Origin: an uncultured Methanomicrobiales archaeon
GTDB taxonomy: Archaea; Halobacteriota; Methanomicrobia; Methanomicrobiales; JACTUA01
Direction of reading: 5' to 3'
NCBI GenBank assembly: GCA_964551875.1
Contig: CAZKEV010000001.1
Location: 11,303 to 75,302 of the forward strand
DNA length: 64,000 bases
The position numbers were made by a program, and so were the translations under genes. How positions within the stretch are numbered: the first letter of the stretch is position 1; every line of letters begins with the position of its first letter. Positions 7,965 through 55,600 of the stretch are shown piece after piece. The notes beneath the pieces were generated by a model that worked only from the letters and a program-made list of their open reading frames with translations, was not told the origin of the DNA and did no database searches.

Positions 7965-9335
7965 TCACGCGTTCGAGAACGTCAGGATCACGCTCCCCGC
8001 ATAGGCTCCGGGCTGCTGTGTCGCCGGCACCGAGAGCCTCGCATCGAGGAGTGTGTGCCCTACCGGTGCGGTCGCCACCTGCACATCGGAGCCATCATCA
8101 TTCAGGGCCACGATGGATCCGGTCGGACCCAGCTGGAAGTTGTGCGCCGCGAGGATATCGGGTCCCGACACCAGCCCGAAGATCCCCCCGATGCTGTCGG
8201 CGAACCGGGCCTCAACCTTCGCAGGGTTACAGCCGGTATTGTTTAAAACTACCGACGGGCTAATGGTCTTGCTCTGACCCCGGAGGATCGACCCGAAGGC
8301 GCCGTCCGAGGCCTGGATCACCGTGTTCTGGCCACACAACACAGTGGCGGTGTAGCCGACGGCATTCGGTGTTGCCATCGTTTCCGGACCGATAAACCGA
8401 CCGAAGGCAAGAGCAATGCCTTCAACGTTCACCGTGGCTGTAACGGTGTTGGCTGCTGTGTCAATGACTGAGACATCGTGGCTGTCAGAGTTCGCCACGT
8501 ATACCCGTGTTCCCGCCGGGTTCACTGCCACTCCCACAGGAGTGTATCCCACGTTCACCATGGATACAACGGTATTTGTGGCTGTGTCAATGACAGAGAC
8601 ATTGTTACTGTTGTGGTTCGCCACGTAAACCCGCGTTCCCGCCTGGTTCACCGCTATTCCCCAGGGATGGATTCCAACGATTATCGTGGTATTAATCATG
8701 TTTGTTGCTGTGTCAATGACATGGACTGTGTTGCCGCCACCATCCGCCACGTATACCAGAGTTCCCGCCGGATTCACTGCCACTCCATAAGGGAGGCTTC
8801 CCACGTTCACCGTGGCTGTAACCTTGTTTGTGGCTGTGTCAATGACATCGACAGTCTTTTCCATATTGTTCGTCACATATACCCTTGTTCCCGCCGGGTT
8901 TACTGCTACTCCATACGGATAGCTCCCTACGGTCACCGTGGCTGAAACCGTGTTTGTGGCTGCGTCAATGACTGAGACGGTGTCGCTGTTCGAGTTCGCC
9001 ACGTATACCCTTGTTCCCGCCGGGTTCACCGCCACTCCATAAGGAGAGATTCCCACGTTCACCGTGGCTGTAACGGTGTTCGTGGCCGTGTCGATGACTA
9101 AGACGGCGTTGTCGTAAGGGTTCGTCACATATACCCTTGTTCCCGCCGGGTTCACCGCCACTCCCCAAGAAACGCTTCCAGTGTCGACCACCGCTGCAAC
9201 CGTGTTTGTTGCTATGTCAATGACCGAGACATTTTCACCCGTGATATATGCAAACGGTGCTGCGCCTGCGCTGCCTGCAAGCAGTAAAAAGGCGAGCATG
9301 GTTATGACAAAACCTGCTCTTACATTGATGTTCAT
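7965..9335 (-). CDS. YVTN beta-propeller surface protein 1 with C-terminal Ig-like domain
   Basis: Signal peptide ending AGA-AP; six complete [13 protein letters not shown] repeats plus split ends (7 blades); C-terminus ...[15 protein letters not shown]. Confidence 0.9.
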   Translation of the reverse strand: MNINVRAGFVITMLAFLLLAGSAGAAPFAYITGENVSVIDIATNTVAAVVDTGSVSWGVAVNPAGTRVYVTNPYDNAVLVIDTATNTVTATVNVGISPYGVAVNPAGTRVYVANSNSDTVSVIDAATNTVSATVTVGSYPYGVAVNPAGTRVYVTNNMEKTVDVIDTATNKVTATVNVGSLPYGVAVNPAGTLVYVADGGGNTVHVIDTATNMINTTIIVGIHPWGIAVNQAGTRVYVANHNSNNVSVIDTATNTVVSMVNVGYTPVGVAVNPAGTRVYVANSDSHDVSVIDTAANTVTATVNVEGIALAFGRFIGPETMATPNAVGYTATVLCGQNTVIQASDGAFGSILRGQSKTISPSVVLNNTGCNPAKVEARFADSIGGIFGLVSGPDILAAHNFQLGPTGSIVALNDDGSDVQVATAPVGHTLLDARLSVPATQQPGAYAGSVILTFSNA

Positions 9336-9381
9336 CCTTACTCACGCCTCCTCACCAGTTCGAAATAAGACCCTCCTCTCA

Positions 9382-10782
9382 TCAATTCGAGAACGTCAGG
9401 ATCACGCTCCCTGCGTATGCCCCGGCTGGCTGCGTCGATGGCACGGAGAGCTTCGCATCGAGGCTCGTAATCCCTACCGGTGCGGTCGCCACCTGCACGT
9501 CGGTGCCGTCATCGCTGAGGGCCTCGAGTGCTCCTGTGGGCCCCATCTCGAAGTTGCTCGCCGGGAGCACGTCGGTACCCGAGATTAGCCCGAAAAGTCC
9601 GCCGATGCTGTCGGCGAACCGGCCCTCGACCCTCGCCGGGTTGCATCCCGTATTATTGAGCACCACTGACGGGCTGATAGTCTTTGATGCACCTCGGAGG
9701 ATCGGGCCGAAGGTACCGTTCGTGGCCTGGATCACCGTGTTCTGGCCACACAACACAGTGGCGGTGTAGCCGACGGAGTTGGTTGGTGCCGTTGTTGCCG
9801 GACCTATAAATAGACCAAAAGAATGAGGATATCTTCCTACGTTCACGGTGGCTGTAACCGTGTTTGTTGCTGTGTCAATCACCGAGACAGTGTTGCTGTA
9901 TACGTTCGCCACGTATACCTTTGTTCCAGCCGGGTTCACTGCCACGCCAACAGGACCATTTCCCACGGTCACCGTGGCTGTAACAGTATCAGTGGCTGTG
10001 TTAATCACCGAGACGGTGTTGCTTGAGACGGTGGAGTTCCCAGAGTTCGCCACGTATACAAGTGTTCCCACCGGGTTCACTGCCACGTAACCAGGACCAT
10101 TTCCCACGGTCACCGTGGCTGTAACAGTATCAGTGGCTGTGTCAATCACCGAAACATTGTTGCTGCGATAGTTCGCCACGTATACCCTTGTCCCCGCCGG
10201 GTTCACTGCCACGCCCCAAGGTTCGATTCCTACATTCACGGTGGTTGTAACAGTGTCTGTTGCTGAATCAATCACCGAGACATTGAGGCGGTTCGTCACG
10301 TATACCTTCGTTCCCGCCGGATTAACTGCCACGCCCACAGGATACCTTCCTACGTTGTTCACTGTGGCTGTAACCGTGTTTGTTGCTGTGTCAATCACCG
10401 AGACATTGTGGCGGTTATAGTTCGTCACGTATACCTTTGTTCCCGCCGGGTTCACTGCCACTCCATAAGAGCTTCCTACGTTCACTGTGGCTGTAACGGT
10501 GTTTGTTGCTGTGTCAATCACCGAGACATAGTCGCCCCGCATGTTCGTCACGTATACCTTTGTTCCCGCGGGGTTCACTGCCACTCCATAAGGCTCCGCT
10601 CTACCTCCAGAAGGGTCGGTTATGTTCACCGAGGCTATAACCGTGTTTGTGGCTGTGTCAATGACCGAGACATTTTCGCTGCCCCAGTTCGTGATATAAG
10701 CAAAGGGTGCTGCGCCTGCGCTGCCAGCGAGCAGCACAAGGGCGAGCAGGGTTATGACAAAAGCTGTTCGTAGATGGTTCAT
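9382..10782 (-). CDS. YVTN beta-propeller surface protein 2 with C-terminal Ig-like domain
   Basis: Same architecture as paralogs 1 and 3; six complete repeats; ends [13 protein letters not shown]. Confidence 0.9.
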
Positions 10783-10839
10783 CCTTACTTACGCCTCCTC
10801 ATCAGTTCAAGTCACCCAAGAAAAAATAAGATCTATCTC

Positions 10840-12225
10840 TCACGCGTTCGAGAAGGTCAGGATCACGCTCCCCGCGTACGCCCCGGCTGGCTGCGTCGAT
10901 GGAACCGAGAGCTTCGCATCGAGGTTCGTAATCCCTACCGGTGCGGTCGCTACCAGCACGTCGCTGCCGTCATCGCTGAGGGCCTCGAGTGCTCCTGTGA
11001 GACCCATCTCGAAGTTGTGAGCAGGGAGAACATTGGTACCCGAGATCAGCCCGAAGATACTGCCGATACTCTCGGCGAACCGGCCCTCGACCTTCGCCGG
11101 GTTGCATCCGGTATTATTGAGCACCACTGACGGGCTGATGGTCTTTGATTCGCCCCGTAGGATCGCGCCGAAGGTGCCGTTCGAGGCCTGGATCACCGTG
11201 TTCTGGCCGCACAACACCGTGGCGGTGTAGCCGACGCTGTTCGGTGTTGCCATTGTTTCTGGACCGATAAATAGACCCAATCCCATAGGACCGTTTCCAA
11301 CAGTAATCGTGTCTATAACGGCGTTTGTTGCCATATCGATTACAGAAACGGCGTTGTCGAACCGGTTCGTTACATACACCTTTGTTCCCGCCGGGTTCGC
11401 TGCAACGCCATAAGGACCGTTTCCAACAGTAATCGTGTCTGTAACAGCATTTGTTGCCGTATCGATTACAGAGACGGTGTCGCTGCCCGCGTTCGCCACG
11501 TAAACCTTCGTTCCCGCCGGGTTCACTGCAACGCCAGAAGGATCGGTTCCTACGGGCACGGTGGCTGTAACCGTGTTTGTGGCTGTGTCAATCACAGAGA
11601 CGGTGTTGCTCCAGTAGTTCGTCACATAAACCCTTGTTCCCGCCTGGTTCACTGCCACGCCATCAGGACCGGTTCCTACGGGCACGGTGGCTGTAACCGT
11701 GTTAGTGGCTGTGTCAATTACATAGATTTCGTTGCTATCAAGTCCCGCCACGTAAACCTTTATTCCCGCCGGGTTCACAGCAACTCCCGAAGGACCGTTA
11801 TTTCCTACGTCCACCGTGGCTGTAACCGTGTTAGTGGCTGTGTCGATTACATGGACCTGGTAGCCATTTTGGTTCGTCACGTAAACCCTTGTTCCCGCCG
11901 GATTCACAGCAACTCCATAAATGCCGCTCCCTGGTACATTCACAATGGCTGTAACAGCGTTTGTTGCTGTATCAATTACTGAAACGCTACTGTTGAAATA
12001 GTCCGCCACGTATACCCTTGTTCCCGCCGGGTTCACTGCAACTCCCTGAGGATTGGGTCCTACATTCACTGTGGCTGTTACCGTGTTAGTGGCTGTGTCA
12101 ATCACCGAGACAGTGTTGCTGCCAGAGTTCGTGATGTACGCAAAGGGTGCTGCGCCTGCGCTGCCTGCGAGCAGCACAAGGGCGAGCATGGTTATGACAA
12201 AACCTGTTCTTACATTGATGTTCAT
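10840..12225 (-). CDS. YVTN beta-propeller surface protein 3 with C-terminal Ig-like domain
   Basis: Same architecture; 5' end and upstream leader nearly identical in DNA to paralog 1. Confidence 0.9.
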   Translation of the reverse strand: MNINVRTGFVITMLALVLLAGSAGAAPFAYITNSGSNTVSVIDTATNTVTATVNVGPNPQGVAVNPAGTRVYVADYFNSSVSVIDTATNAVTAIVNVPGSGIYGVAVNPAGTRVYVTNQNGYQVHVIDTATNTVTATVDVGNNGPSGVAVNPAGIKVYVAGLDSNEIYVIDTATNTVTATVPVGTGPDGVAVNQAGTRVYVTNYWSNTVSVIDTATNTVTATVPVGTDPSGVAVNPAGTKVYVANAGSDTVSVIDTATNAVTDTITVGNGPYGVAANPAGTKVYVTNRFDNAVSVIDMATNAVIDTITVGNGPMGLGLFIGPETMATPNSVGYTATVLCGQNTVIQASNGTFGAILRGESKTISPSVVLNNTGCNPAKVEGRFAESIGSIFGLISGTNVLPAHNFEMGLTGALEALSDDGSDVLVATAPVGITNLDAKLSVPSTQPAGAYAGSVILTFSNA

Positions 12226-31854: not shown

Positions 31855-32060
31855 CTTCTTTCCCTGCCTCTTCAGGTCGATGGACGGGAGGGTACTGCAC
31901 GGGAAGGGTTAAAAACCTGATGGTTCCTGGGGCCTGAAACGATCCCTCTCAGCCCATATCAAATTCCCCGCGCCGGGAAGGAGTGTACCGGCAGGTTCAC
32001 CGGGATCGGCTGCGAAACTCTCCCGAATTCTTGGGAAAAAAAGGTTGATTTCAGGGCGAT

Positions 32061-32518: not shown

Positions 32519-33451
32519 ATGAAACCGATCCGGGTTCTCGGGATCCTCCTCGTCATCTCCCTCGCGGCGAACCTGTACCTGGCATCCTTCCCGCTCCAGG
32601 GAGACCGGGCGGATCTCGCAGAACTCACGAGCCGGGTGAATATGCTCGAGTCCGAGAATGCCCGGCTCTCCATGCAGGTGGACAGGGATAATGCGACCCT
32701 CGGGGGGTACCAGAGCCAGCTCGGCCTCTACCGGATGCAGCTCCAGGAGCTGACCGGCCTCATTAATGTCTCCCCATCGGGAACGGGGCCGGTAGGATCG
32801 GCAGTCCTCCAGGGCCCTGCCGTTCTCCAGCAGATCCAGTACGACAGGGACAGCCCCTTTGCCAGGGGGCAGGTCGTCCAGTCCGGGGTCATGCTGAACA
32901 TCACCGCAGAGGTGAAGCCCGGGAAGGGGCGGGTCCTCGTGGATACCAAACCTCTCATGGGGCTCGTCTTCCAGGACGCGGCCAACACCGCCGTATACGT
33001 TGCCCAGAACCGGACAGGGATCTCTCTTGTCGGGAGCGACGTGATCTTCTCCATTAACGCGCCCGGCCAGGTACCGGCTGTGGACGGCCCGAGTGCAGGC
33101 GCCCTGATGACCCTCCTTGCCATCTCAGCTCTCGAGAACAAGCCCCTCCACGAGGATGTGACCCTCACCGGCACCATCGACCAGGACGGGAATGTCGGGG
33201 CTGTCGGCGGTGTCGTCGAGAAGGCCCGGGCTGCCAGGGACTCCGGCAAATCCGTCATCCTCCTCCCCAGGGCGAACGCGAACCTCCTCCAGTACACCCA
33301 GCAGACCCGCGAGTACTATGGTTTCAACGTGATCCAGCAGGTCCCGAAAAGCGTGGACGCGAAGACCTATGTCGAGGCAAATATCGGGGTGAAGGTCCAG
33401 TATGTCGATACTATCGATGATGTGTTCAGAATCGCGACCGCTCCGGGCTAG
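32519..33451 (+). CDS. Membrane-anchored S16 (Lon C-terminal) serine protease
   Basis: N-terminal TM and coiled coil; DGPSAGA (Ser), LTGTI, VGGVVEKA (Lys). Confidence 0.87.
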   Translation: MKPIRVLGILLVISLAANLYLASFPLQGDRADLAELTSRVNMLESENARLSMQVDRDNATLGGYQSQLGLYRMQLQELTGLINVSPSGTGPVGSAVLQGPAVLQQIQYDRDSPFARGQVVQSGVMLNITAEVKPGKGRVLVDTKPLMGLVFQDAANTAVYVAQNRTGISLVGSDVIFSINAPGQVPAVDGPSAGALMTLLAISALENKPLHEDVTLTGTIDQDGNVGAVGGVVEKARAARDSGKSVILLPRANANLLQYTQQTREYYGFNVIQQVPKSVDAKTYVEANIGVKVQYVDTIDDVFRIATAPG

Positions 33452-33470
33452 GGGCCCGCCCGGATCACGA

Positions 33471-33859
33471 CCGGTTTCCAACCGGTCGGATCGCGTCCGG
33501 TTATCAACCGTCCGGATCGCGACCGGTCAGGGACCGGCCGCAATATGTCCGGTTAAAAACCGTCCCCCACGCCACCGGTTTGAGAACCGTTGGTCGCCAC
33601 CGGTTTGACAACCGCTGGCTCTGCCTCGGATTTGAAAATCCTCGGCCTCTACCTCTGGTTTGATAACCCTCGGCATTGCGTCGGGTTATCCAATCCTCCG
33701 CTCTGGCTCCGGTTCATAGAACCGTCCCCCACGCCACCGGTTTGAGAACCGTTGGTCCCCACCGGTTTGACAACCGCTGGCTCTGCCTCGGATTTGAAAA
33801 TCCTCGGCCTCTACCTCGGGTTTGATAACCCTCGGCCTTGGGTCGGTTTCACTGAAACC
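33471..33859. repeat. Array of about 15 short palindromes with 25-29 nt period, containing a 162-nt near-identical duplication
   Basis: Units start at 33471, 33497, 33523, 33549, 33575, 33600, 33626, 33655, 33682, 33709, 33737, 33762, 33788, 33817, 33843; consensus CCGGTT-N3/4-AACCG. The segment from 33558 recurs at 33720. Confidence 0.88.
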
Positions 33860-33939
33860 TCCCCAACCCAAAATCATATCAACTCCTACCCCCATCAATC
33901 TCTGGTTTCGGATTCCGAAGCCTCTCTCGAGGAACTGTT

Positions 33940-34833
33940 ATGCCGCAGGGAAAGACATACCCCTACCCGTCAGGCGATGGTGAGGTGAAATGGGTCTCCA
34001 CGGAATGGCTCGCAGACCACCTGAAAGACCCGGGCCTCCAGATCATCGATTCCCAGCCGAACATCCATGACTACCTGAGGGGCCATATCCCGGGGGCCTT
34101 CTATGTGGAAGAGAACCATTTCAGGATAGCCCAGGAGAGGCCCGGGATCTTCCTGCCTCCCGAAATGGCCGAACTGCTCTTCCGGAGGCTGGGTGTCCGC
34201 GCCGATCTCCCGTTGGTGGTCTGCTCAAGCTCCGGCCCCCTCTCGGCCTGCACCACCTTCATCGGCGACGGCCTGGAGCAGACGATGCTTGCCTACACCC
34301 TCGCGCGGTACGGCCACCGGAAGGTCCACATCCTTGACGGCGGGGTCGACAAGTGGCAGGAGGAGGGGAGGCCGCTCTCCCAGACCTTCCCCCGGGTCGT
34401 GGAATCGGACTTCAGGGTCCAGCTCAGGCGTGAATTCTTCGTGGAATACAACGAGGTGAAGGCCATGAAGGACCGGCCCGACGTCATCCTCCTGGATGCC
34501 CGGCCCTCGCCCGTGTACGAGGGGCAGGGACCCTGGCCGAAGCCCGGCCACATCCCGGGGGCCGTCAACCTCCCCTGGAAGAGCCTCATGGACGATAAAA
34601 ACAAGAAGCTCCTGAAACCGGACGACCAGATCCAGGCTATCCTTGCCGAGAAGAAGATCACCCCCGACAAGAATATCATCTGCTCCTGCGGGACAGGGAG
34701 GGAGGCGACCAACGAGTTCTGCCTCTTCAAGTTCTACCTCAAGTACCCGAAGGTGAAGATCTACGAGGGGTCCTTCACCGAGTGGTCCATGTTCCCTGAT
34801 AATCCCACAGTGACCGGGAAGAACCCGAGATAA
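33940..34833 (+). CDS. Tandem-domain rhodanese / sulfurtransferase (SseA-like)
   Basis: GHIPGA twice, LDGGVDKW, active-site loop CGTGRE, YEGSFTEW. Confidence 0.92.
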   Translation: MPQGKTYPYPSGDGEVKWVSTEWLADHLKDPGLQIIDSQPNIHDYLRGHIPGAFYVEENHFRIAQERPGIFLPPEMAELLFRRLGVRADLPLVVCSSSGPLSACTTFIGDGLEQTMLAYTLARYGHRKVHILDGGVDKWQEEGRPLSQTFPRVVESDFRVQLRREFFVEYNEVKAMKDRPDVILLDARPSPVYEGQGPWPKPGHIPGAVNLPWKSLMDDKNKKLLKPDDQIQAILAEKKITPDKNIICSCGTGREATNEFCLFKFYLKYPKVKIYEGSFTEWSMFPDNPTVTGKNPR

Positions 34834-34846
34834 GGGCGGGCACCCT

Positions 34847-36232
34847 TCACGAAATTATTTTATGGAGGATGCGGAGCAGGTTTGCAAGGAACCGGCGCTG
34901 CCTCTCCATTCTCCTCACAAAGATGGCCTCTTCTGAGATGAAGAGCTCCTTTAAGTGGTAAATATCGGTTTTCGGCGAGAAGAATACGTAGATGGGTATC
35001 CCCGCGAGGATGACGAGCCCGCCAGCGAGCTTGTCAAAGAGGGATGTGGAAGCGAGGAGGTAGATGCAGATGGCGGCGCCTGCCCACGGGAGGATCCCGA
35101 TGCCGCGCGGGGTCTTCTCATCCCTCCTTGCGAGGAGAGTGAGGGCGAGGCAGGTGAGGAGGAAGGAGAAGGCCATGTTAAAGACCGAGAAGGAGATGAG
35201 GCCCGAGATGCCGGCAACCAGGGAGAGGAGGAAGGCGATGATGCCCTCTATGATGAGGGCTGCGTACGGTGTCCCGTACCTGGGGTGGATGAGGGAGAAG
35301 ACCCTCGGGAAGAGGCCGTCGATGGCCATGGCATAGGAGAGCCGGGCGGTCCCCAGGATCCCGCTCTCGTCCGACCCTGAGACCGAGACGAGCGCGCCTG
35401 CAGTCATGAAGATGGCCCCTGCAGCCCCGAAGAGCGCCCCGCCCACCAGGATGAGCGGGGTGGCCGACTGTGCAAGGGTCTCCCAGGGAACCATGCCGAA
35501 GACGACGAAGTTCGTGGAGAGGTAGAAGGCCGTGACCACGAGCATGCCCGAGATGATCGCCTTCGGGATGGTTTTTGTCGGGTCCTTCACCTCGCTCGCA
35601 GGGAGGGTCCCCATCTCGAAGCCCACGTACGCCCAGAAGATGAGGACGAAGGCGGTGCCGACGTTTCCGAACCCGAGGGGCGCGAAGGGGGTGTAGGTGG
35701 AGAGGAGCCTCGAGGGGTTGAGGGCGAAGACCGCGAGGCCCGCGACGACGAGGGCAAGGAGGGGGAGAAGCTTCACCATCGTGAGGAGGTCGTTCAGCCT
35801 CCCCGCGGCCCGGACACCCATGATGTTTACCAGGGTAAGGGTTGCTAGGAAGGCCCCCTTCACAAGGATCTCGGCGGGGGTGCTCAGGGGGATGAGAAAC
35901 TCAAGGTACTGCACAAAGGCGATGGCAAAGACCGGGAGGGCAAGGATCTCGGCGATCCAGAGGGACCAGCCCGCGATGAACCCGAAGAAGTCATCGAAGG
36001 CCTCGGAGACGAATGCGAACGGCCCTCCCACCCTGGGGAGGAAGTAGCCGCAGTACGCAAAGACCAGGGCAAGGACCGTGGCGCAGATCGCAGCAGCGAT
36101 CCAGACCACGATGGCGAAGGGCCCGACGAGCCCTGCCGTGAGGGCCGAGGCGATATAGATGTCTGCCCCGACGACAGACCCGATGACGATGTTCGTCAGG
36201 TCAAAGAGGGAGAGGTCCCGCCTGAGTTCCAT
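34847..36232 (-). CDS. APC-family amino acid permease
   Basis: IGSVVGADIY, YVGFE, EVKDP, RLSYAMAIDG, GTP; about 12 TM segments. Confidence 0.9.
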   Translation of the reverse strand: MELRRDLSLFDLTNIVIGSVVGADIYIASALTAGLVGPFAIVVWIAAAICATVLALVFAYCGYFLPRVGGPFAFVSEAFDDFFGFIAGWSLWIAEILALPVFAIAFVQYLEFLIPLSTPAEILVKGAFLATLTLVNIMGVRAAGRLNDLLTMVKLLPLLALVVAGLAVFALNPSRLLSTYTPFAPLGFGNVGTAFVLIFWAYVGFEMGTLPASEVKDPTKTIPKAIISGMLVVTAFYLSTNFVVFGMVPWETLAQSATPLILVGGALFGAAGAIFMTAGALVSVSGSDESGILGTARLSYAMAIDGLFPRVFSLIHPRYGTPYAALIIEGIIAFLLSLVAGISGLISFSVFNMAFSFLLTCLALTLLARRDEKTPRGIGILPWAGAAICIYLLASTSLFDKLAGGLVILAGIPIYVFFSPKTDIYHLKELFISEEAIFVRRMERQRRFLANLLRILHKIIS

Positions 36233-47703: not shown

Positions 47704-48711
47704 ATGGACATTGATTTGAAGATTGCCACTGAGGATGATTCCAAGGGCTGGGATGATATCGTACATTCCTCTCCGCACGGAACCATCTTTCACACCTGGA
47801 AGTGGCTCAAGATCGTTGAGAGGCACAGGGGCTGCACATTTTACCCGCTTATTGCGTACCGGGATACCTCTCTTTATGCGATATACCCGATTTTTCTCCA
47901 GAAGAAGGGTATTTTCCGAATCGCCCTTTCCCCCCCCTCCCATGCATACCTCCTCTACCTCGGGCCGGTCATTATCGACTATGAGAAGAAAAAGCAGGAT
48001 AAAAAGGAGAGCATTTTCATCGAGCTCCAGCGCGAGGTTGATAAATTCATTTTTGAGAGGATGAAATGTAGATATTCAAGAATACGCCTTTCACCCGGAT
48101 TAAACGATTCAAGGCCATTACAATGGAATAATTATACGGTGACCCCCCTGTATACCCTCCGGACAGGTCTTGGGATTGGCAAGGAGCAGATTCTCGAAAG
48201 ATTTGACAGGAAACTCCGGGTAAGCCTGAACCGGGCAATAAAGGAGGGAGTTGTCGTCCGAGAAGGAAAGAGGGAGGATTTGCTTCTGGTCGAGGAGAAC
48301 CTGACCCGGAGACGAAAGGATCAGAGTCTTCCATCGACCGATCACGTCGGATATCTCCTCGACCTGTATGATCATTTTCATGACAACATGAAAATATTCC
48401 TGGCATATCACCAGGATGAACTCGTGGGAAGCCTCGTGGCCCTCGTCTACAGGGATATCATGCACCTCTGGATAGGGACCCCGAAAAGCGAATTAAAAGG
48501 CGTATATCCCAATGATCTCGTCCAGTGGGAGGCGATGAAGTGGGCCTGCGACCACCAGCTCACCTATTTCGAAAGCATGGATGCCGGGGATGATCTCCGG
48601 CTAAGGGCGTACAAGTCAAAATGGAACCCCGATCCCCTAATCTGGTTCTCTGCAGAGAAATACTCCTCCCCGTTGTTCAGGATTGGAGAACGGCTTTTCA
48701 TGAAGAAGTAA
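47704..48711 (+). CDS. FemAB-like double-GNAT protein 2
   Basis: FHTWKWLKI, YLGPV, PNDLVQWEAM, YKSKWN. Confidence 0.82.
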   Translation: MDIDLKIATEDDSKGWDDIVHSSPHGTIFHTWKWLKIVERHRGCTFYPLIAYRDTSLYAIYPIFLQKKGIFRIALSPPSHAYLLYLGPVIIDYEKKKQDKKESIFIELQREVDKFIFERMKCRYSRIRLSPGLNDSRPLQWNNYTVTPLYTLRTGLGIGKEQILERFDRKLRVSLNRAIKEGVVVREGKREDLLLVEENLTRRRKDQSLPSTDHVGYLLDLYDHFHDNMKIFLAYHQDELVGSLVALVYRDIMHLWIGTPKSELKGVYPNDLVQWEAMKWACDHQLTYFESMDAGDDLRLRAYKSKWNPDPLIWFSAEKYSSPLFRIGERLFMKK

Positions 48712-49050
48712 GACACTGAAGACAGTGGTATGGTTTGATAACCATATCACTAAATCTCCCCTTTTTGAGGTTCTTTTCAGAAAAAACGAGCTTTATATAT
48801 CCCCAATAGGTTCTCATATAATATATTTCCTTGAGGATCATGCTCTCAAATTTTCGGCATCTGCCGAAGTCCCTCAAAATTAGAACCTTTTTAAAAAGCT
48901 TCAAAGCGAGGTAGGTTCCATATGAAACCATTTCCCATCCACACGAATTATGCCCGGGAACGCACCCGGGCCATGCCCGAGAAGATCAGGGCTCACCCAT
49001 GAGATACATCTGCTCTGGGGTGGGCTCCTAGGGTGCAGCATAACAATAAC

Positions 49051-52231: not shown

Positions 52232-55200
52232 ATGCCCAGATACTCCCGCTGGGTCAGCAGGTCCCTGATCCTCTTGTCCCTTGTGATCACGGTCCTGCTC
52301 ATCTTTCCAGTCGATGCCCAGACCCATCCATCGTTGCTCTTCAATGATATCAGGGATACGCCGGGCTACCAGCACCGGACCACGGCTCCGTGGAGTGATT
52401 ATGAATCCTCGATCATCAGCTATGCCGATGATTATCTGTCCGTGGACTTCTCCAGCAGTAGCCTGAGTCAAAGCACCCGGGCTGATGACGCCCAGGATCT
52501 CGGTCTCGCCTACCAGATCACCAAACAGCAGAAGTATGCCGATGCGGCCCGGTGGGCTCTCCTTAACATCACGCCTCCGCAAGCCGGCCGTGATAACCAG
52601 GAGATGAACTCCCTGCGGGGCTACGCCCTTGCTTATGACTGGATACAGACCACCCTCAGCGCGGCGGATAATGCTACCATAAGGGACAAGATGGCAATAG
52701 TTACCGATCAGGTGTACAAAGATCTCAATAAAAACGGTGCCTATCGGGGGGTCATCCAGTTTGCCGACTACGATGGACAGGCCTACCCGGCAGTCGGGAT
52801 CATGGGGTGCGCCCTCTCCGACTACACCAACCCCCTCTCCCTCTCCTCCACGCCAGCCGACTGGCAGAAGGTGGGGACCGACTACCTCTTTGTTGACGAT
52901 AGCGTGCTCCATGACACCGGTGGCCGGTCCATGTTCAGCTTCGGGTTTGACGAGGCATCCGGAAAACACCTGAACGGCGCCTACAAGTTCTATGTGAGCG
53001 ACTCGTTCCTCTGGTGGTTCCAGGTCTACAGCCACTTCAAAGGGACGAACATCCTCGGGGTCTACCCCGCCGCCAGGCGGGCCTTCACCTCTGAGCTCTG
53101 GGAGTCAATGCCCAACTATTACAGCAATAACTATGTTACCCTGGGTAACACCCTCTGGGATTACCCGCTGGGGCTCCTCAACCTCTATGATCCCGATACA
53201 AGAGCCCAGGTTCTCAACTACCTTGACCATGTCCAGAGCACCTCCTTGCTCCCCTACTCACGTACTTTCAGTTCACCCTCCAGCCGGCTCCTCTACCTCG
53301 TCTACCCGGACACCAGTGCCATGCCCCGCACGACTCCCTCCTCTACGAGCCACCTGGATCCGAACGCCATCTACCAGGTATTCCGGGGGAGCTGGGCCGA
53401 GGACTCCGATTGGCTCTCCCTGGTCACCTTCAATGTCAATACCTGGAGCAACCGGGACAGAATGCATCACGACCAGCTGGGTATTGAGTATTATAGCAGG
53501 GGCGACCTGCTCCTCGCCGATGCAGGAGAGGATAAGCATGTACAGGATGCGTACTATGGCGACTTTGAGATCCATCACAATACCATCGCCCTTGAAAATC
53601 CCAGATCCCCCTTTTCTCTTGCGGCCTGGTCGAATAGCCCGGCGCGCGGTATTTTTAAAGGGGATACGAGCGGTATCACGACACCGGTCACCATAGATAC
53701 CCTCGTTCAGACTTCATGGGTGGAGATGCTTGCAGGGCGGGCTACCATTACTGAAGTCATCGGGAATGGTTGGTCGGATTATTATACCCTCTCACCCTCC
53801 GTTCAGTTTTCCCGATCCATACTCTATCCCAGCAGGGATTACTTTATCCTCATCGACCGGCTGCAGGGAAGCGAGACCTGGACGTATCGGAATATCTTCC
53901 GTCCCACCAGCCTCTCTATTACCCCCACATCAGGCTCAACGGTCGGGAATGTCCAGGGAAGCCTTACCTTGGGAGGAACTCTCTTCAACTGGCTGGGCCT
54001 TGACTACAAGAGAGAGACCTCCACTGGCATCACTACGAACTCCCTGAAATGGACGACCCGGAACCCCTATGGGGACAATGTCAACCTGGAAGTCTTCACC
54101 AGCCCGGCCTCCGAGGTTTTGGTCACCAAGCACGTGGGGAGAATTGCGGGATACGACGAGAAGAATGAGGTGTACTCACCGATTATCTCCTTCCGGACCC
54201 CTTCGGTAAATAACCTCTACCGGGTCACTGTACTCCTTTCCCGCTATGACTCTGAAACTGCGAAGGAGCCATCGGAGCTTGTGGTGACCGGGCTGGGTTC
54301 CGCCGTAAAGGTGCATAATACAACATTTGACGACTATATCTATGCTGGCAGCGGTTCATCATCATTCGGACCATTCTCTACCGATGCGGAAACGGTCTAT
54401 ACACGCGTAACCACTCGACCTGTCAACTACACCATGGCTGGCGGGAGTTATCTGAACTTTTCAGAGAGATCATTCCTGCGAGTTTCCGAGAATATCGACT
54501 GCCTCGCGGCAACAGAAAAGGCCGACCGGATATCGTTGTACATAAAGAGCGGATCGCCAGGTTATACCATATCCCTCTTCCAGCTTCAGCAAAGTGTAAC
54601 CGGGGTCACGATAGATGGTATTCCCTCTGCATCTTGGACAAATACTGGTGATACCATGACATTTACCGCTACCCAGGGCGCACATCTTGTGGATATCCTC
54701 ACTGCCCCGTTCCCGAACCGGCCCCCGAGCCTCGATCCCATCGGGAACAAGACCGTGACTGCTGGATCCCCGCTCGCCTTTACCATCAGTGCGACGGATC
54801 CCGATGGGAATGCTCTCACGTATTCAGCAGCCGGGCTCCCCTCAGGGGCAATATTCGATGCTTCTTCGAGAACCTTCACCTGGACCCCTGCAACCTCCCA
54901 GAATGGGTCCTACCAGATGAAATTCACAGTATCAGATGGATCACTCACCGATGACGAGACCATCTTCATTACGGTTCTTCGGGTTGGTGCCCCCCCGAAC
55001 CAGCCCCCGAGCCTCGATCCCATCGGGAACAAGACCGTGACTGCTGGATCCCTGCTCACCTTTACCATCAGTGCGACAGATCCCGACGGGAATGCTCTCA
55101 CGTATTCAGCAGCCGGGCTCCCCTCAGGAGCAATATTCGATGCTTTTTCGAGGACCTTTACCTGGACCCCTGCAATCTCCCTGAATGGGTCCTATCAGAT

Positions 55201-55600
55201 GACATTCACAGTATCAGATGGATCACTCACTGATGACGAGACCATCTTCATCACGGTTCTTCGGATGGATGTCCCTACTTCTCCGCCGATCCCCCCCGAC
55301 TCCGGCTCGGATTCCATGGTTTTTAGCGTGGAAATAGTTACACCTCCCCCTGCAGAACAAACCGTTGTGAATAAAATTTCTGGAGAAAAAGCAGTAATCG
55401 AGACCGAAACACCTCCGGAAAAACAATTATCTACCACTACGCCCCGTTCAACCGTAACGGTTTCAGAATCACCAGGAGAACCTGCAATTGCACAAAAAAA
55501 TAATATTTTAACTGATTTTATAAGTAATTCGGGCATTTTGCCATCTCTCCAATATTTCGTGAATATTATACAGAAAATATTTTCTTTTTTTAAATTTTAA
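52232..55600 (+). CDS. Secreted heparinase II/III-like polysaccharide lyase-fold protein with two putative Ig domains
   Basis: Signal peptide; HPSLLF start of a helical toroid; AIYQVFRGSW...HHDQLGIEYYSRGDLLLADAG...HNTI; two NxPPSLDPIGNKTV...FTVSDG repeats; Ser/Thr/Pro-rich tail. Confidence 0.78.
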   Translation: MPRYSRWVSRSLILLSLVITVLLIFPVDAQTHPSLLFNDIRDTPGYQHRTTAPWSDYESSIISYADDYLSVDFSSSSLSQSTRADDAQDLGLAYQITKQQKYADAARWALLNITPPQAGRDNQEMNSLRGYALAYDWIQTTLSAADNATIRDKMAIVTDQVYKDLNKNGAYRGVIQFADYDGQAYPAVGIMGCALSDYTNPLSLSSTPADWQKVGTDYLFVDDSVLHDTGGRSMFSFGFDEASGKHLNGAYKFYVSDSFLWWFQVYSHFKGTNILGVYPAARRAFTSELWESMPNYYSNNYVTLGNTLWDYPLGLLNLYDPDTRAQVLNYLDHVQSTSLLPYSRTFSSPSSRLLYLVYPDTSAMPRTTPSSTSHLDPNAIYQVFRGSWAEDSDWLSLVTFNVNTWSNRDRMHHDQLGIEYYSRGDLLLADAGEDKHVQDAYYGDFEIHHNTIALENPRSPFSLAAWSNSPARGIFKGDTSGITTPVTIDTLVQTSWVEMLAGRATITEVIGNGWSDYYTLSPSVQFSRSILYPSRDYFILIDRLQGSETWTYRNIFRPTSLSITPTSGSTVGNVQGSLTLGGTLFNWLGLDYKRETSTGITTNSLKWTTRNPYGDNVNLEVFTSPASEVLVTKHVGRIAGYDEKNEVYSPIISFRTPSVNNLYRVTVLLSRYDSETAKEPSELVVTGLGSAVKVHNTTFDDYIYAGSGSSSFGPFSTDAETVYTRVTTRPVNYTMAGGSYLNFSERSFLRVSENIDCLAATEKADRISLYIKSGSPGYTISLFQLQQSVTGVTIDGIPSASWTNTGDTMTFTATQGAHLVDILTAPFPNRPPSLDPIGNKTVTAGSPLAFTISATDPDGNALTYSAAGLPSGAIFDASSRTFTWTPATSQNGSYQMKFTVSDGSLTDDETIFITVLRVGAPPNQPPSLDPIGNKTVTAGSLLTFTISATDPDGNALTYSAAGLPSGAIFDAFSRTFTWTPAISLNGSYQMTFTVSDGSLTDDETIFITVLRMDVPTSPPIPPDSGSDSMVFSVEIVTPPPAEQTVVNKISGEKAVIETETPPEKQLSTTTPRSTVTVSESPGEPAIAQKNNILTDFISNSGILPSLQYFVNIIQKIFSFFKF
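54713..55264 (+). repeat. Intragenic tandem duplication encoding two He_PIG-type Ig domains
   Basis: 54713-54982 and 54995-55264 are highly similar DNA copies with a 282-nt period. Confidence 0.9.

Follow-up and report, generated by a model that had tools for sequence, protein, structure and literature searches.

Our analysis concerns an array of short palindromes in the genome of an uncultured Methanomicrobiales archaeon. The array belongs to a 64,000-nt stretch of one contig (CAZKEV010000001.1, assembly GCA_964551875.1), which we call the window, and it sits in the spacer between a protease gene and a sulfurtransferase gene, both encoded on the + strand. The spacer is 488 nt long (33452-33939). 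The gene upstream (32519..33451, +) encodes a membrane-anchored Lon_C (S16) protease-like protein of 310 aa (Pfam Lon_C, E 8.6e-17), and the first palindrome follows 16 nt after its stop codon. The gene downstream (33940..34833, +, ATG at 33940) encodes a protein of 297 aa with two rhodanese domains (Pfam Rhodanese, E 2e-31, two matched stretches); its homologues carry the source annotation thiosulfate/3-mercaptopyruvate sulfurtransferase. It is preceded by a Shine-Dalgarno (SD) sequence, GAGGA, at 33929-33933 (+). The order of the Lon_C and sulfurtransferase genes is kept in all relatives. We are highly confident that the array between them is a hypervariable, clade-specific minisatellite made of hairpin modules of 22-28 nt, which extends from the protease stop codon to the sulfurtransferase promoter.

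The array is about 400 nt long (406 nt in the hairpin count given below) and consists of 15 phased modules that follow each other head-to-tail with a period of 25-28 nt. Each module is made up of a C/T-rich linker and a palindrome of 13-21 nt, and a hairpin is possible in every one of them. When the array is scanned for palindromes, 13 of the 15 module centres prove to have perfect stems, 5-9 bp long and closed by loops of 1-5 nt; at the other two (33662.5 and 33689.5) the stems are imperfect. From centre to centre, the palindromes are 26, 26, 26, 26.5, 25, 27, 28, 27, 27.5, 27.5, 25, 27, 28 and 27.5 nt apart. The initial annotation of this DNA had given the first four spacings as exactly 26 nt, which is correct for the first three intervals (the first four palindromes); the fourth is 26.5 nt. 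Tandem Repeats Finder reports periods of 26 (33456-33540), 25 (33570-33618) and 28 (33604-33674 and 33766-33838), and also one of 52. With periods of 25-28 nt and a variable number of copies, the array cannot encode a conserved peptide repeat, and we disregarded the open reading frames (ORFs) that run across the spacer.

The modules have a uniform polarity. An unpaired tetranucleotide, NNTC, stands before the left arm of the palindrome and TCC or TCG after the right arm. The tag is CGTC in a few modules and otherwise GGTC, CCTC, GCTC or CATC; GTAG occurs in no module. The linkers are 8-14 nt long, consist to 67% of C and T on the sense strand and are themselves repeated. Between 33624 and 33835 they hold seven copies of CCTCG and two of CCTCC, and CCTCG is complementary to CGAGG in the SD region of the sulfurtransferase gene (33928-33932). 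CCTCG is common genome-wide (150 per 64 kb on the + strand), and masking of the SD sequence on read-through transcripts is only a lead.

Across lineages, at least seven types of module can be told apart, plus some rarer ones. Types A (CCGGTT-N3-AACCGG), B (caCCGGTTtgagAACCGttgg), C (ctcGGGTTtgatAACCCtcgg), F (TTTCGTttcACGAAA) and G (GGATTTgaAAATCC, found only in the window) have periods of 25-28 nt; types D (tcGCGAC-N4-GTCGCtc) and E (gtcGGTTTCAnTGAAACCtcc) have periods of about 22-23 nt. The stems include CGGTT/AACCG, GGGTT/AACCC, GGATTT/AAATCC, CCGGTC/GACCGG, GGTTTC/GAAACC, GCGAC/GTCGC, TTTCGT/ACGAAA and others. Within the window the diversity is smaller, and 9 of the 15 stems have the core GGTT...AACC in common. 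The earlier description of about 15 covarying palindromes is thus right about the number of modules and about the covariation of their arms, but it overstates their diversity, which becomes complete only when the relatives are included.

Modules 1-4 (33468..33562, +) are of type A, follow a period of exactly 26 nt and score 15-22 bits against our covariance model of the module (R1), on the + strand only. Module 1, CGACCGGTT-tcc-AACCGGTCG (33468-33488), is kept in four related lineages (L010, L015, L005 and L106), where loops tcc, ccc and cgc are found. Next come module 2, CGGTT-atc-AACCG (33498-33510), module 3, CCGGTC-agg-GACCGG (33523-33537), and module 4, CGGTT-aaa-AACCG (33550-33562). A block of 130 nt then begins at 33558 and ends at 33687. 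It holds a module of type B (33576-33589), a variant of it, B' (33601-33614), module G, GGATTT-ga-AAATCC (33628-33641), and module C, GGTT-tgat-AACC (33657-33668). Between this block and its second copy lie the centres of module 9, GGGTT-atcc-AATCC with one G.T pair (33683-33696), and module 10, CGGTTC-ata-GAACCG (33710-33724), both of which occur in the relative L009 too. The second copy (33720..33849) repeats the first at 96% identity with an offset of 162 nt, and contains B at 33738-33751, B' at 33763-33776, G at 33790-33803 and C, here GGGTT-tgat-AACCC, at 33818-33831. The block duplication noted in the initial annotation is borne out. Module 15, of type E, GGTTTCA-c-TGAAACC (33845..33859), is adjacent to the promoter. 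All of these modules lie on the + strand. The 6-bp stems of module E are identical in L009, L010, L006, L012, L003/L004 and L089, with AcT, AtT, Ata, attc or attt at the centre.

The density of palindromes is far above expectation. With a minimum score of 5, 13 hairpins fit without overlap into the 406 nt of the array, whereas dinucleotide shuffles of it hold 4.3 +/- 1.75, and the 155 other tiles of the window hold 4.4 +/- 1.8 with a maximum of 10. The pattern CGGTT-N3/4-AACCG occurs seven times in the window, always inside the array, compared to 0.13 occurrences expected. Hence, the palindrome array first noticed from the sequence alone is real, and all stems that were quoted for it are present in the sequence.

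Our results also place the array relative to the promoter of the sulfurtransferase gene. A predicted element consisting of a transcription factor B recognition element (BRE) and a TATA box, acccaaaatcatatca, lies at 33866..33881 (+; TATA box at 33874-33881), downstream of module 15. It is conserved in alignment A1, which covers the last 110 nt before the ATG and includes the array-free lineages L007 and L100, and a BRE/TATA-like box is conserved also in the array-free L100-102 and L007/8. Its sequence, and how far it lies from the ATG, suggest that this box acts as the sulfurtransferase promoter. Because the conserved box lies downstream of module 15, the array would be upstream of the predicted promoter. 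For this reason we reject the array as a 5' leader or riboswitch of the sulfurtransferase gene, one of the options that had been put forward for it. A search for sigma-70 promoters and intrinsic terminators returned nothing relevant, with a bacterial model that is the wrong one for Archaea.

Only one palindrome lies within the predicted leader. This sixteenth palindrome, GGTTTCGGA-t-TCCGAAGCC (33904..33922, +), had already been reported just before the start codon and is indeed there, with one T.G pair. The predicted transcription start (centre of the TATA box plus about 26 nt) falls on its first G. Seven array-bearing lineages have the palindrome, with stems that are largely kept (1-2 arm changes in L006 and L012) and t, c, g, a or gta as the loop, and L003/L004 hold a different palindrome, GGGTCC-ttacc-GGACCC, at the same position. 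We propose that the palindrome at the predicted +1 would form a 5'-terminal hairpin of the sulfurtransferase mRNA.

An array occurs at the same position in ten related Methanomicrobiales lineages (L009, L015, L010/L090, L006, L012, L005/L103, L003/L092, L004, L089 and L106). Leaving L089 aside, their sulfurtransferases are 81-97% identical to that of the window. The number of modules ranges from 2 in L015 to 15 in the window (0, 2, 5, 6, 10 and 15 in syntenic genomes), and the period in the relatives is 22-25 nt. Three groups of relatives lack the array: L100-102, L007/8 and L016, with sulfurtransferase protein identities of 82%, 79% and 71%. In L100-102 and L007/8 the spacer measures 84 nt and retains the TATA box. 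With high confidence, the array-bearing lineages form a roughly genus-level group of uncultured Methanomicrobiales.

Within this group the array changes quickly and by whole modules. L003 and L004 have identical sulfurtransferases, and their spacers are 340 and 240 nt long. L009, whose upstream flank is 97% identical to that of the window at the nucleotide level, differs by five modules, one of them of type A, with indels of 32, 53 and 53 nt. The two 53-nt indels concern the same pair of modules, B'+G, which is present in both block copies of the window (33558-33849) and in neither copy of L009 (L009:2237-2400). That the same indel is found in both blocks points to conversion between the blocks, concerted evolution or parallel change. 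The array grows and shrinks in register, by whole modules or blocks, through slippage or through unequal exchange with conversion between blocks.

Several observations suggest that the stems of these modules are under constraint. We compared each left arm with its own right arm and with the right arms of other modules, a test that does not depend on an alignment. Own arms are complementary at 5.6 of 7 positions in modules with odd loops and at 4.8 of 6 in modules with even loops; swapped arms reach only 2.6 of 7 and 2.4 of 6 (permutation p < 1e-4). A mixed MAFFT alignment of all modules (A2) set types with odd and even loops in different registers, and we counted pairs on a separate alignment (A3) instead. 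In A3, 90% of the cells are paired, a percentage lowered by seven type-A rows that are one column out of register, compared to 62% in shuffles and 34-59% in slid controls. Both members of the pair have changed in 50 cells, a value reached by 0 of 500 shuffles (17 cells in shuffles), and five of the six pairs show changes on both sides. The arm-swap and pairing figures are inflated, since only the best hairpins were picked as modules and since duplication has made the modules kin to one another; perhaps five to seven compensated events are independent. The clearest example is module G, where 4 of 27 positions depart from the neighbouring module C: two of the differences turn a G-C pair into an A-T pair, and a third adds a pair.

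Comparisons between species point in the same direction. In modules that can be matched between species, the stems are 97.4% identical (263/270), the linkers 90.2% (321/356) and the loops 81.5% (75/92). The stems differ from the loops at 1.6e-6 and from the linkers at 2.9e-4 (Fisher's exact test). At the four-fold-degenerate sites of the adjacent sulfurtransferase gene identity is 59-88%. Module E has kept all 12 of its stem bases in lineages in which 12 neutral sites would all survive with a probability of 0.002-0.05. The palindrome at the predicted +1 follows the same pattern. As the stems are conserved above synonymous sites while the loops drift, the sequences argue for purifying selection on the arms and speak against a purely neutral repeat. 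Of the proposal that selection acts on dyad symmetry and on spacing, the first half is supported by the arm-swap test, the covariation and the conservation of the stems, but the second is not, given periods of 22-28 nt and arrays of 2-15 modules.

The search for further copies was carried out with a covariance model, as had been recommended at the outset. R1 matches all 15 modules of the window, on the + strand only, and is nearly exclusive to the locus: outside the array there is no match with E < 0.3 in the 64-kb window, and over 86 kb of close relatives the sole match beyond the arrays belongs to a mini-array in L003. This match (L003:6927-6952, minus strand, 16.4 bits, E 0.18) was counted twice, since L092 is the same contig. 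The mini-array (L003:6895-7012, minus strand; the same in L004 and L092) consists of three hairpins, CGCGAACGG-tgag-CCGTTCGCG, CCGGGTCC-gat-GGACCCG and CGTTTCG-tctcc-CGAAACG. They lie about 1 kb away, where a spacer of 118 nt separates the sulfurtransferase gene from the permease gene convergent with it. The mini-array is inverted relative to the main array and one of its hairpins is F-like. Its stem GGGTCC/GGACCC is also the stem of the hairpin in the 5' untranslated region of the sulfurtransferase gene in that lineage, so that in L003 this gene is bracketed by matching hairpins.

Searches farther afield returned little. Among GTDB species representatives, the exact module E is found in three Methanomicrobiales assemblies, once in each and always at this locus; eight further hits, in bacteria, are due to chance. 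A scan for structure only, over 450 kb of fetched loci, finds chains of at least four phased palindromes essentially only here. The exact patterns of modules B and C are absent from IMG/VR, and a viral origin is thus unsupported. Rfam gives no match at the gathering threshold over the whole window (the best sub-threshold matches reach 21 and 16 bits, with thresholds of 50 and 70), a search for tRNA and tmRNA genes gave nothing, and our literature searches found no comparable element in methanogens.

Two single sites in the window do recall the modules. GGTTAAAAACC at 31907-31917 equals the core of module 4 and lies in the spacer between the MscL and HEAT-repeat genes, on the minus strand and upstream of the HEAT-repeat ATG by about 55 nt. 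With R1 it scores 13.2 bits (E 0.87), and it may be the TATA box of the HEAT-repeat gene. GGTTTGATAACC at 48732 equals the 12-nt core of module C and is part of a 7-bp hairpin, TATGGTT-tgat-AACCATA (48726-48743), which follows a FemAB/GNAT-like gene (47704-48711), 15 nt past its stop codon, and precedes a T5 tract by about 20 nt. This hairpin may be an isolated relation of the array modules, or have arisen by chance (about 0.01 expected). Outside the array, GGTT-N3/4-AACC occurs five times, compared to about 1.7 expected for the whole window. None of these searches brought up anything as dense as a REP family.

We also looked for genes that might act on the array. Our Pfam scan took in 38 ORFs of the window, namely the genes of the locus and 30 of the approximately 50 ORFs outside it. 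Neither these 38 ORFs nor the annotated neighbours in the relatives include an HUH, REP-associated tyrosine transposase (RAYT) or IS200 transposase, a ParA/SegA, Orc1/Cdc6, Rep or Cas protein, or an adjacent regulator. HUH/RAYT, SegAB/ParAB and orc1 genes had been named as neighbours to look for, and none was seen in the ORFs scanned.

What could the array be doing? The reading that we favour, tentatively and by analogy, is that it is a transcribed intercistronic hairpin array which acts like an E. coli cluster of repetitive extragenic palindromic (REP) sequences or of bacterial interspersed mosaic elements (BIMEs). The longest T run in 33452-33939 is 3 nt, and no oligo-T terminator follows the protease gene anywhere up to the sulfurtransferase ATG; other genes of the window terminate in T tracts. 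Because there is no such terminator between the protease gene and the array, the array is most likely transcribed as a trailer of the protease gene. RNA polymerase coming from the protease gene would read on through the array, and the nascent RNA would fold during transcription into a string of short stem-loops. In cis, these could block 3'-to-5' decay of the protease message and attenuate read-through into the sulfurtransferase promoter, or insulate the promoter from it. The strength of the effect would be set by the number of modules. The palindrome at the predicted +1 might be a protective 5'-terminal hairpin of the same general kind. Loop length shifts within module types (1, 3 or 4 nt in E; 3, 4 or 5 nt in D), and such changes fit a hairpin, unlike a dimer that binds the duplex.

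There are a number of points that weigh against a role for the array at the RNA level. Its transcription is deduced solely from the missing terminator. A dependence of archaeal termination or decay on hairpins is not known, and archaeal termination is thought to need only oligo-U. A general RNA device should be found at other loci, whereas this array is confined to one. Any effect must be one that can be forgone or adjusted, since sister lineages lack the array and copy numbers lie anywhere between 2 and 15. Conservation of the stems and linkers at the level of sequence would fit recognition by a protein equally well. In imperfect stems, G.T outnumbers A.C on the + strand by 8 to 3 (p = 0.23), and a transcription-linked C-to-T bias would give the same result. 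Partition-function folding of ten arrays yields a mean local-stem probability of 0.47 on the + strand and 0.51 on the - strand (Wilcoxon p = 0.16), and so gives the + strand no advantage. At equilibrium, pairing between modules is favoured over many of the local hairpins, a result that says nothing on co-transcriptional folding. Lastly, template switching can yield compensated arms without selection on RNA (PMC8794818).

That last point leads to the main rival, which we consider somewhat unlikely. Under this explanation the array is a non-adaptive, self-propagating hairpin minisatellite without a cellular role: modules folding back on the nascent or template DNA strand would stabilise slipped intermediates and so be duplicated preferentially, and intrastrand template switching (quasipalindrome correction) would copy mutations from one arm to the other and leave changes that look compensatory. 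It has been documented that hairpins arise and are maintained through template switching, and that loops become inverted by it (PMC8794818, PMC8604942), and one possible loop inversion is present here (cct/ccc versus agg in CCGGTC-agg-GACCGG). The difference between modules G and C arose between genomes that are about 97% identical, which suits a multi-nucleotide event. Much of the behaviour of the array agrees with such a process as well, including the unstable copy number (2-15), the whole-module indels and unequal lengths behind identical proteins, the 53-nt indel common to both blocks with its hint of conversion, the confinement to a single locus and the absence of an array from sister lineages with the same synteny and promoter. 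It is harder to reconcile with matched stems and linkers that are 97% and 90% identical where synonymous sites reach 59-88%, or with E-module stems left intact at the low neutral survival probabilities given above. The order of conservation (stems, then linkers, then loops) is predicted by purifying selection and not by drift, and the array persists in all ten array-bearing lineages examined. On the other side of the favoured reading stands its boldest version, in which the array is an RNA device of this archaeal clade alone, maintained by selection and tunable through copy number, and the CCUCG/CCUCC linkers might mask the SD sequence of the sulfurtransferase gene. We regard this version as distinctly unlikely.

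The remaining explanations differ in whether the modules act as DNA, as mobile repeats or as RNA of their own. Duplicated palindromic operators for one or several dimeric regulators could make the array a DNA-level protein-binding region upstream of the promoter, either an activating or repressing region or a nucleoprotein scaffold. The array does adjoin the BRE/TATA box, and in every relative about 25 nt separate the centre of the last palindrome from that of the TATA box; in L015, which has the smallest array, the two modules resemble a classical operator pair, 26 bp apart and immediately upstream of the TATA box. The sequence of arms and flanks is conserved while the centre is free, GGTT...AACC is common to 9 of the 15 modules, and identical cores occur at the intergenic sites 31907 and 48732. 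Nevertheless, there are at least seven unrelated stem types, whose half-site spacing varies by 1-2 bp within a type, whose flanks are direct (TC...TC) and not symmetric, and whose period of 22-28 bp amounts to non-integer helical turns and differs by module type. In addition, the promoter-proximal module is E, A, C or F depending on the relative, array-free relatives use the same promoter without an upstream site, and no regulator gene is adjacent, nor is any par, seg or orc1 gene seen, in the scanned ORFs and the neighbours of the relatives. We therefore disfavour the cooperative protein-binding array that the initial annotation had listed among its options, and hold the protein-binding explanation in general to be unlikely. 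Still less credible, in our view, is that the array is a local cluster of a low-copy dispersed REP-like family, comparable to CGTC-tagged REPs that lack a transposase of their own, with other copies that would be found in further parts of the genome. The NNTC tag and the 3-nt tail TCC/TCG recall CGTC REPs (PMC3733652), L003 has a second, inverted group of three hairpins with one F-like member in the next intergenic spacer, exact cores of 11 and 12 nt recur at 31907 and 48732, and GGTT-N3/4-AACC is in excess outside the array. This is set against the R1 searches, which give nothing with E < 0.3 in the rest of the window and only the L003 mini-array in 86 kb of close relatives, and against the exact E module, which is found once per genome in the three Methanomicrobiales assemblies. 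The modules are all head-to-tail, an arrangement rare among REP clusters (PMC3733652), their stems measure 5-7 bp and not 8-9 bp, and no RAYT or IS200 gene is among the window ORFs scanned. We give the least credence of all to a stand-alone noncoding RNA with many hairpins, serving as a sponge for a protein or for ribosomes through its anti-SD-like CCUCG/CCUCC linkers, or to a long structured 5' leader of the sulfurtransferase gene. The beads-on-a-string layout of the array resembles that of CsrB/RsmZ-type sponges, seven CCTCG and two CCTCC motifs in the linkers would be available for SD sequences of the form CGAGG, and in whole-spacer folding both strands do better than shuffles (z -5.1 and -6.5), which is expected of any palindrome array. 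No promoter-like element precedes the array, which begins 16 nt past a stop codon, whereas the conserved TATA box of the sulfurtransferase gene lies downstream. Rfam has no match near the gathering score even at E <= 5, the loops, through which sponge RNAs usually contact their proteins, are the least conserved parts, and copy number varies from 2 to 15.

How does the array compare to known repeats? It fits the description of a minisatellite or variable number tandem repeat, with head-to-tail units in the range of about 10-100 bp and a copy number that varies by whole units among close relatives. In their layout, the closest known systems are E. coli REP/BIME clusters such as REP325 in yjdM-yjdN and the malE-malF REPs, which are likewise regularly spaced, short, GC-rich palindromes between co-directional genes (PMC2817692, PMC3733652). 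Their copy number also differs between strains, and their proposed action in cis, stabilisation of the upstream mRNA and a partial block of read-through, is what we suggest for the array. For REP325, which lies between the tandem genes yjdM and yjdN, it has been reported that the upstream mRNA is stabilised and read-through limited (bioRxiv 10.64898/2026.03.23.713779). BIME REPs alternate in orientation, are dispersed in hundreds of copies and are linked to RAYTs; our array is head-to-tail, mixes stem types and belongs to an archaeal host. REP clusters are head-to-head or tail-to-tail and only rarely head-to-tail (PMC3733652). REP stem-loops measure 20-40 nt, so that palindromes of 13-21 nt with stems of 5-9 bp are at or below the lower limit. 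We reject membership of the REP/BIME family on orientation and, for the window and the 86 kb of relatives, on dispersal; the tag has the CGTC form in a few modules only. Of the suggestion that the array is a REP/BIME-like element we keep the likely mode of action, but not the membership, as the modules are head-to-tail, are not seen elsewhere and come without a RAYT that we could find.

CGTC-tagged REPs, which include the dRS3 clusters of Neisseria, are similar in their unpaired tag ending in TC, their 3-nt tail and their large clusters in some genomes. The tag of CGTC REPs is often TGTC or CCTC, and they have a 3-nt tail and no transposase of their own (PMC3733652). In the array there is no counterpart to their stems of 8-9 bp, which open on A-T pairs, to their CCA tail and 4-5-nt loops, or to their dimers, which are mostly head-to-head. 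Unlike the array, CGTC REPs are dispersed, and they are reported only from five bacterial phyla. The GTAG-1 arrays of Thauera resemble ours in their very short stems (5 bp) and flank specific gene clusters (PMC3733652).

Other systems are less close. The array has in common with mycobacterial interspersed repetitive units (MIRUs) the head-to-tail units in co-directional spacers, the whole-unit differences in copy number and the concerted evolution. MIRU units are 40-100 bp long, occupy about 40 dispersed loci and are not defined by a palindrome kept through compensatory change. Operators of archaeal Lrp/AsnC-type regulators and the iterons and centromeres of plasmids are alike in having regularly spaced short repeats or palindromes by a promoter. 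They are built on one recognition sequence, a fixed half-site spacing, helical phasing and an adjacent cognate gene, and the array differs in each of these. We rejected the iteron, centromere, origin and Lrp-operator readings on account of at least seven stem types, loops of 1-5 nt, a period of 22-28 nt and the lack of a cognate gene in the scanned ORFs. CRISPR arrays also consist of short, partly palindromic repeats at regular intervals, but in them the repeats are identical and 23-47 nt long, the spacers are unique and of similar length, and cas genes usually lie nearby. The array is not a CRISPR, as had been recognised from the start: its repeats of 13-21 nt are non-identical, its linkers of 8-14 nt are repeated, and there is no cas domain in the scanned ORFs. 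We see in the array a variation on palindromic intergenic repeats that are already known, apparently a cousin of bacterial REP/BIME clusters limited to one locus, and no system of a new kind.

REP/BIME-type hairpin clusters are a classic feature of bacterial genomes whose function is still debated. The locus described here provides a clean test case for the question of whether short hairpins have an influence on read-through and on the 3' ends of archaeal mRNAs. It also bears on how far template switching, rather than selection, keeps palindromes paired. If the tunable RNA device were real, Archaea would have in this array their first intercistronic hairpin array of the BIME kind, and module number would be a fast-evolving dial that shares transcription or mRNA survival between the protease and sulfurtransferase genes. 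If the linkers did mask the SD sequence, read-through transcripts would be silenced and only promoter-proximal transcripts translated.

The array has a practical consequence as well. Short-read contigs that carry the sulfurtransferase gene stop in or beside it (L001, L002, L011 and L104-L106), and the exact sulfurtransferase protein of the window is found in only two short Logan contigs, both of which are broken within the array. Arrays of this kind break short-read assemblies and are hence under-represented in metagenome-assembled genomes; they could serve as strain markers.

By its flanking proteins, too, the window belongs to uncultured Methanomicrobiales. The neighbourhood of the array is one of chromosomal housekeeping genes: a pst/phoU operon, thioredoxin, a HEAT-repeat protein, MscL, the Lon_C and sulfurtransferase genes, an amino-acid permease and EamA. 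The names pstB, pstCA and pstS were given by eye from the translations, not by Pfam. The sulfurtransferase and permease genes are convergent and 13 nt apart, and have in common a palindrome, AAGGG-cgggca-CCCTT (34831-34848), that extends over their two stop codons and resembles a 3'-end hairpin serving both directions. Farther off in the window lie PolB, a Clp1-like kinase, UvdE and a putative low-GC glycosylation island.

Over this last region (37200-64000), GC content falls from about 0.60 to 0.35-0.53. It encodes an M28 peptidase, a glycosyltransferase 4, DUF1616, PIG-L and DUF354 proteins, a methyltransferase and three FemAB/GNAT-like paralogues, together with large proteins without a Pfam match. 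The region looks like a cell-surface or glycosylation island and was possibly acquired. Repeats also occur within coding sequences of the window. A unit of 282 nt is present in two copies at 94% identity (54712-55264) within an ORF of 1122 aa (52232-55600). Three large ORFs on the minus strand (7965-12225) contain tandem repeats from 8420 to 12120, with a unit of 126 nt for which lengths of 252 and 378 nt were scored as well. In L003 and L004, PKD-domain genes lie a few kb upstream of the array.

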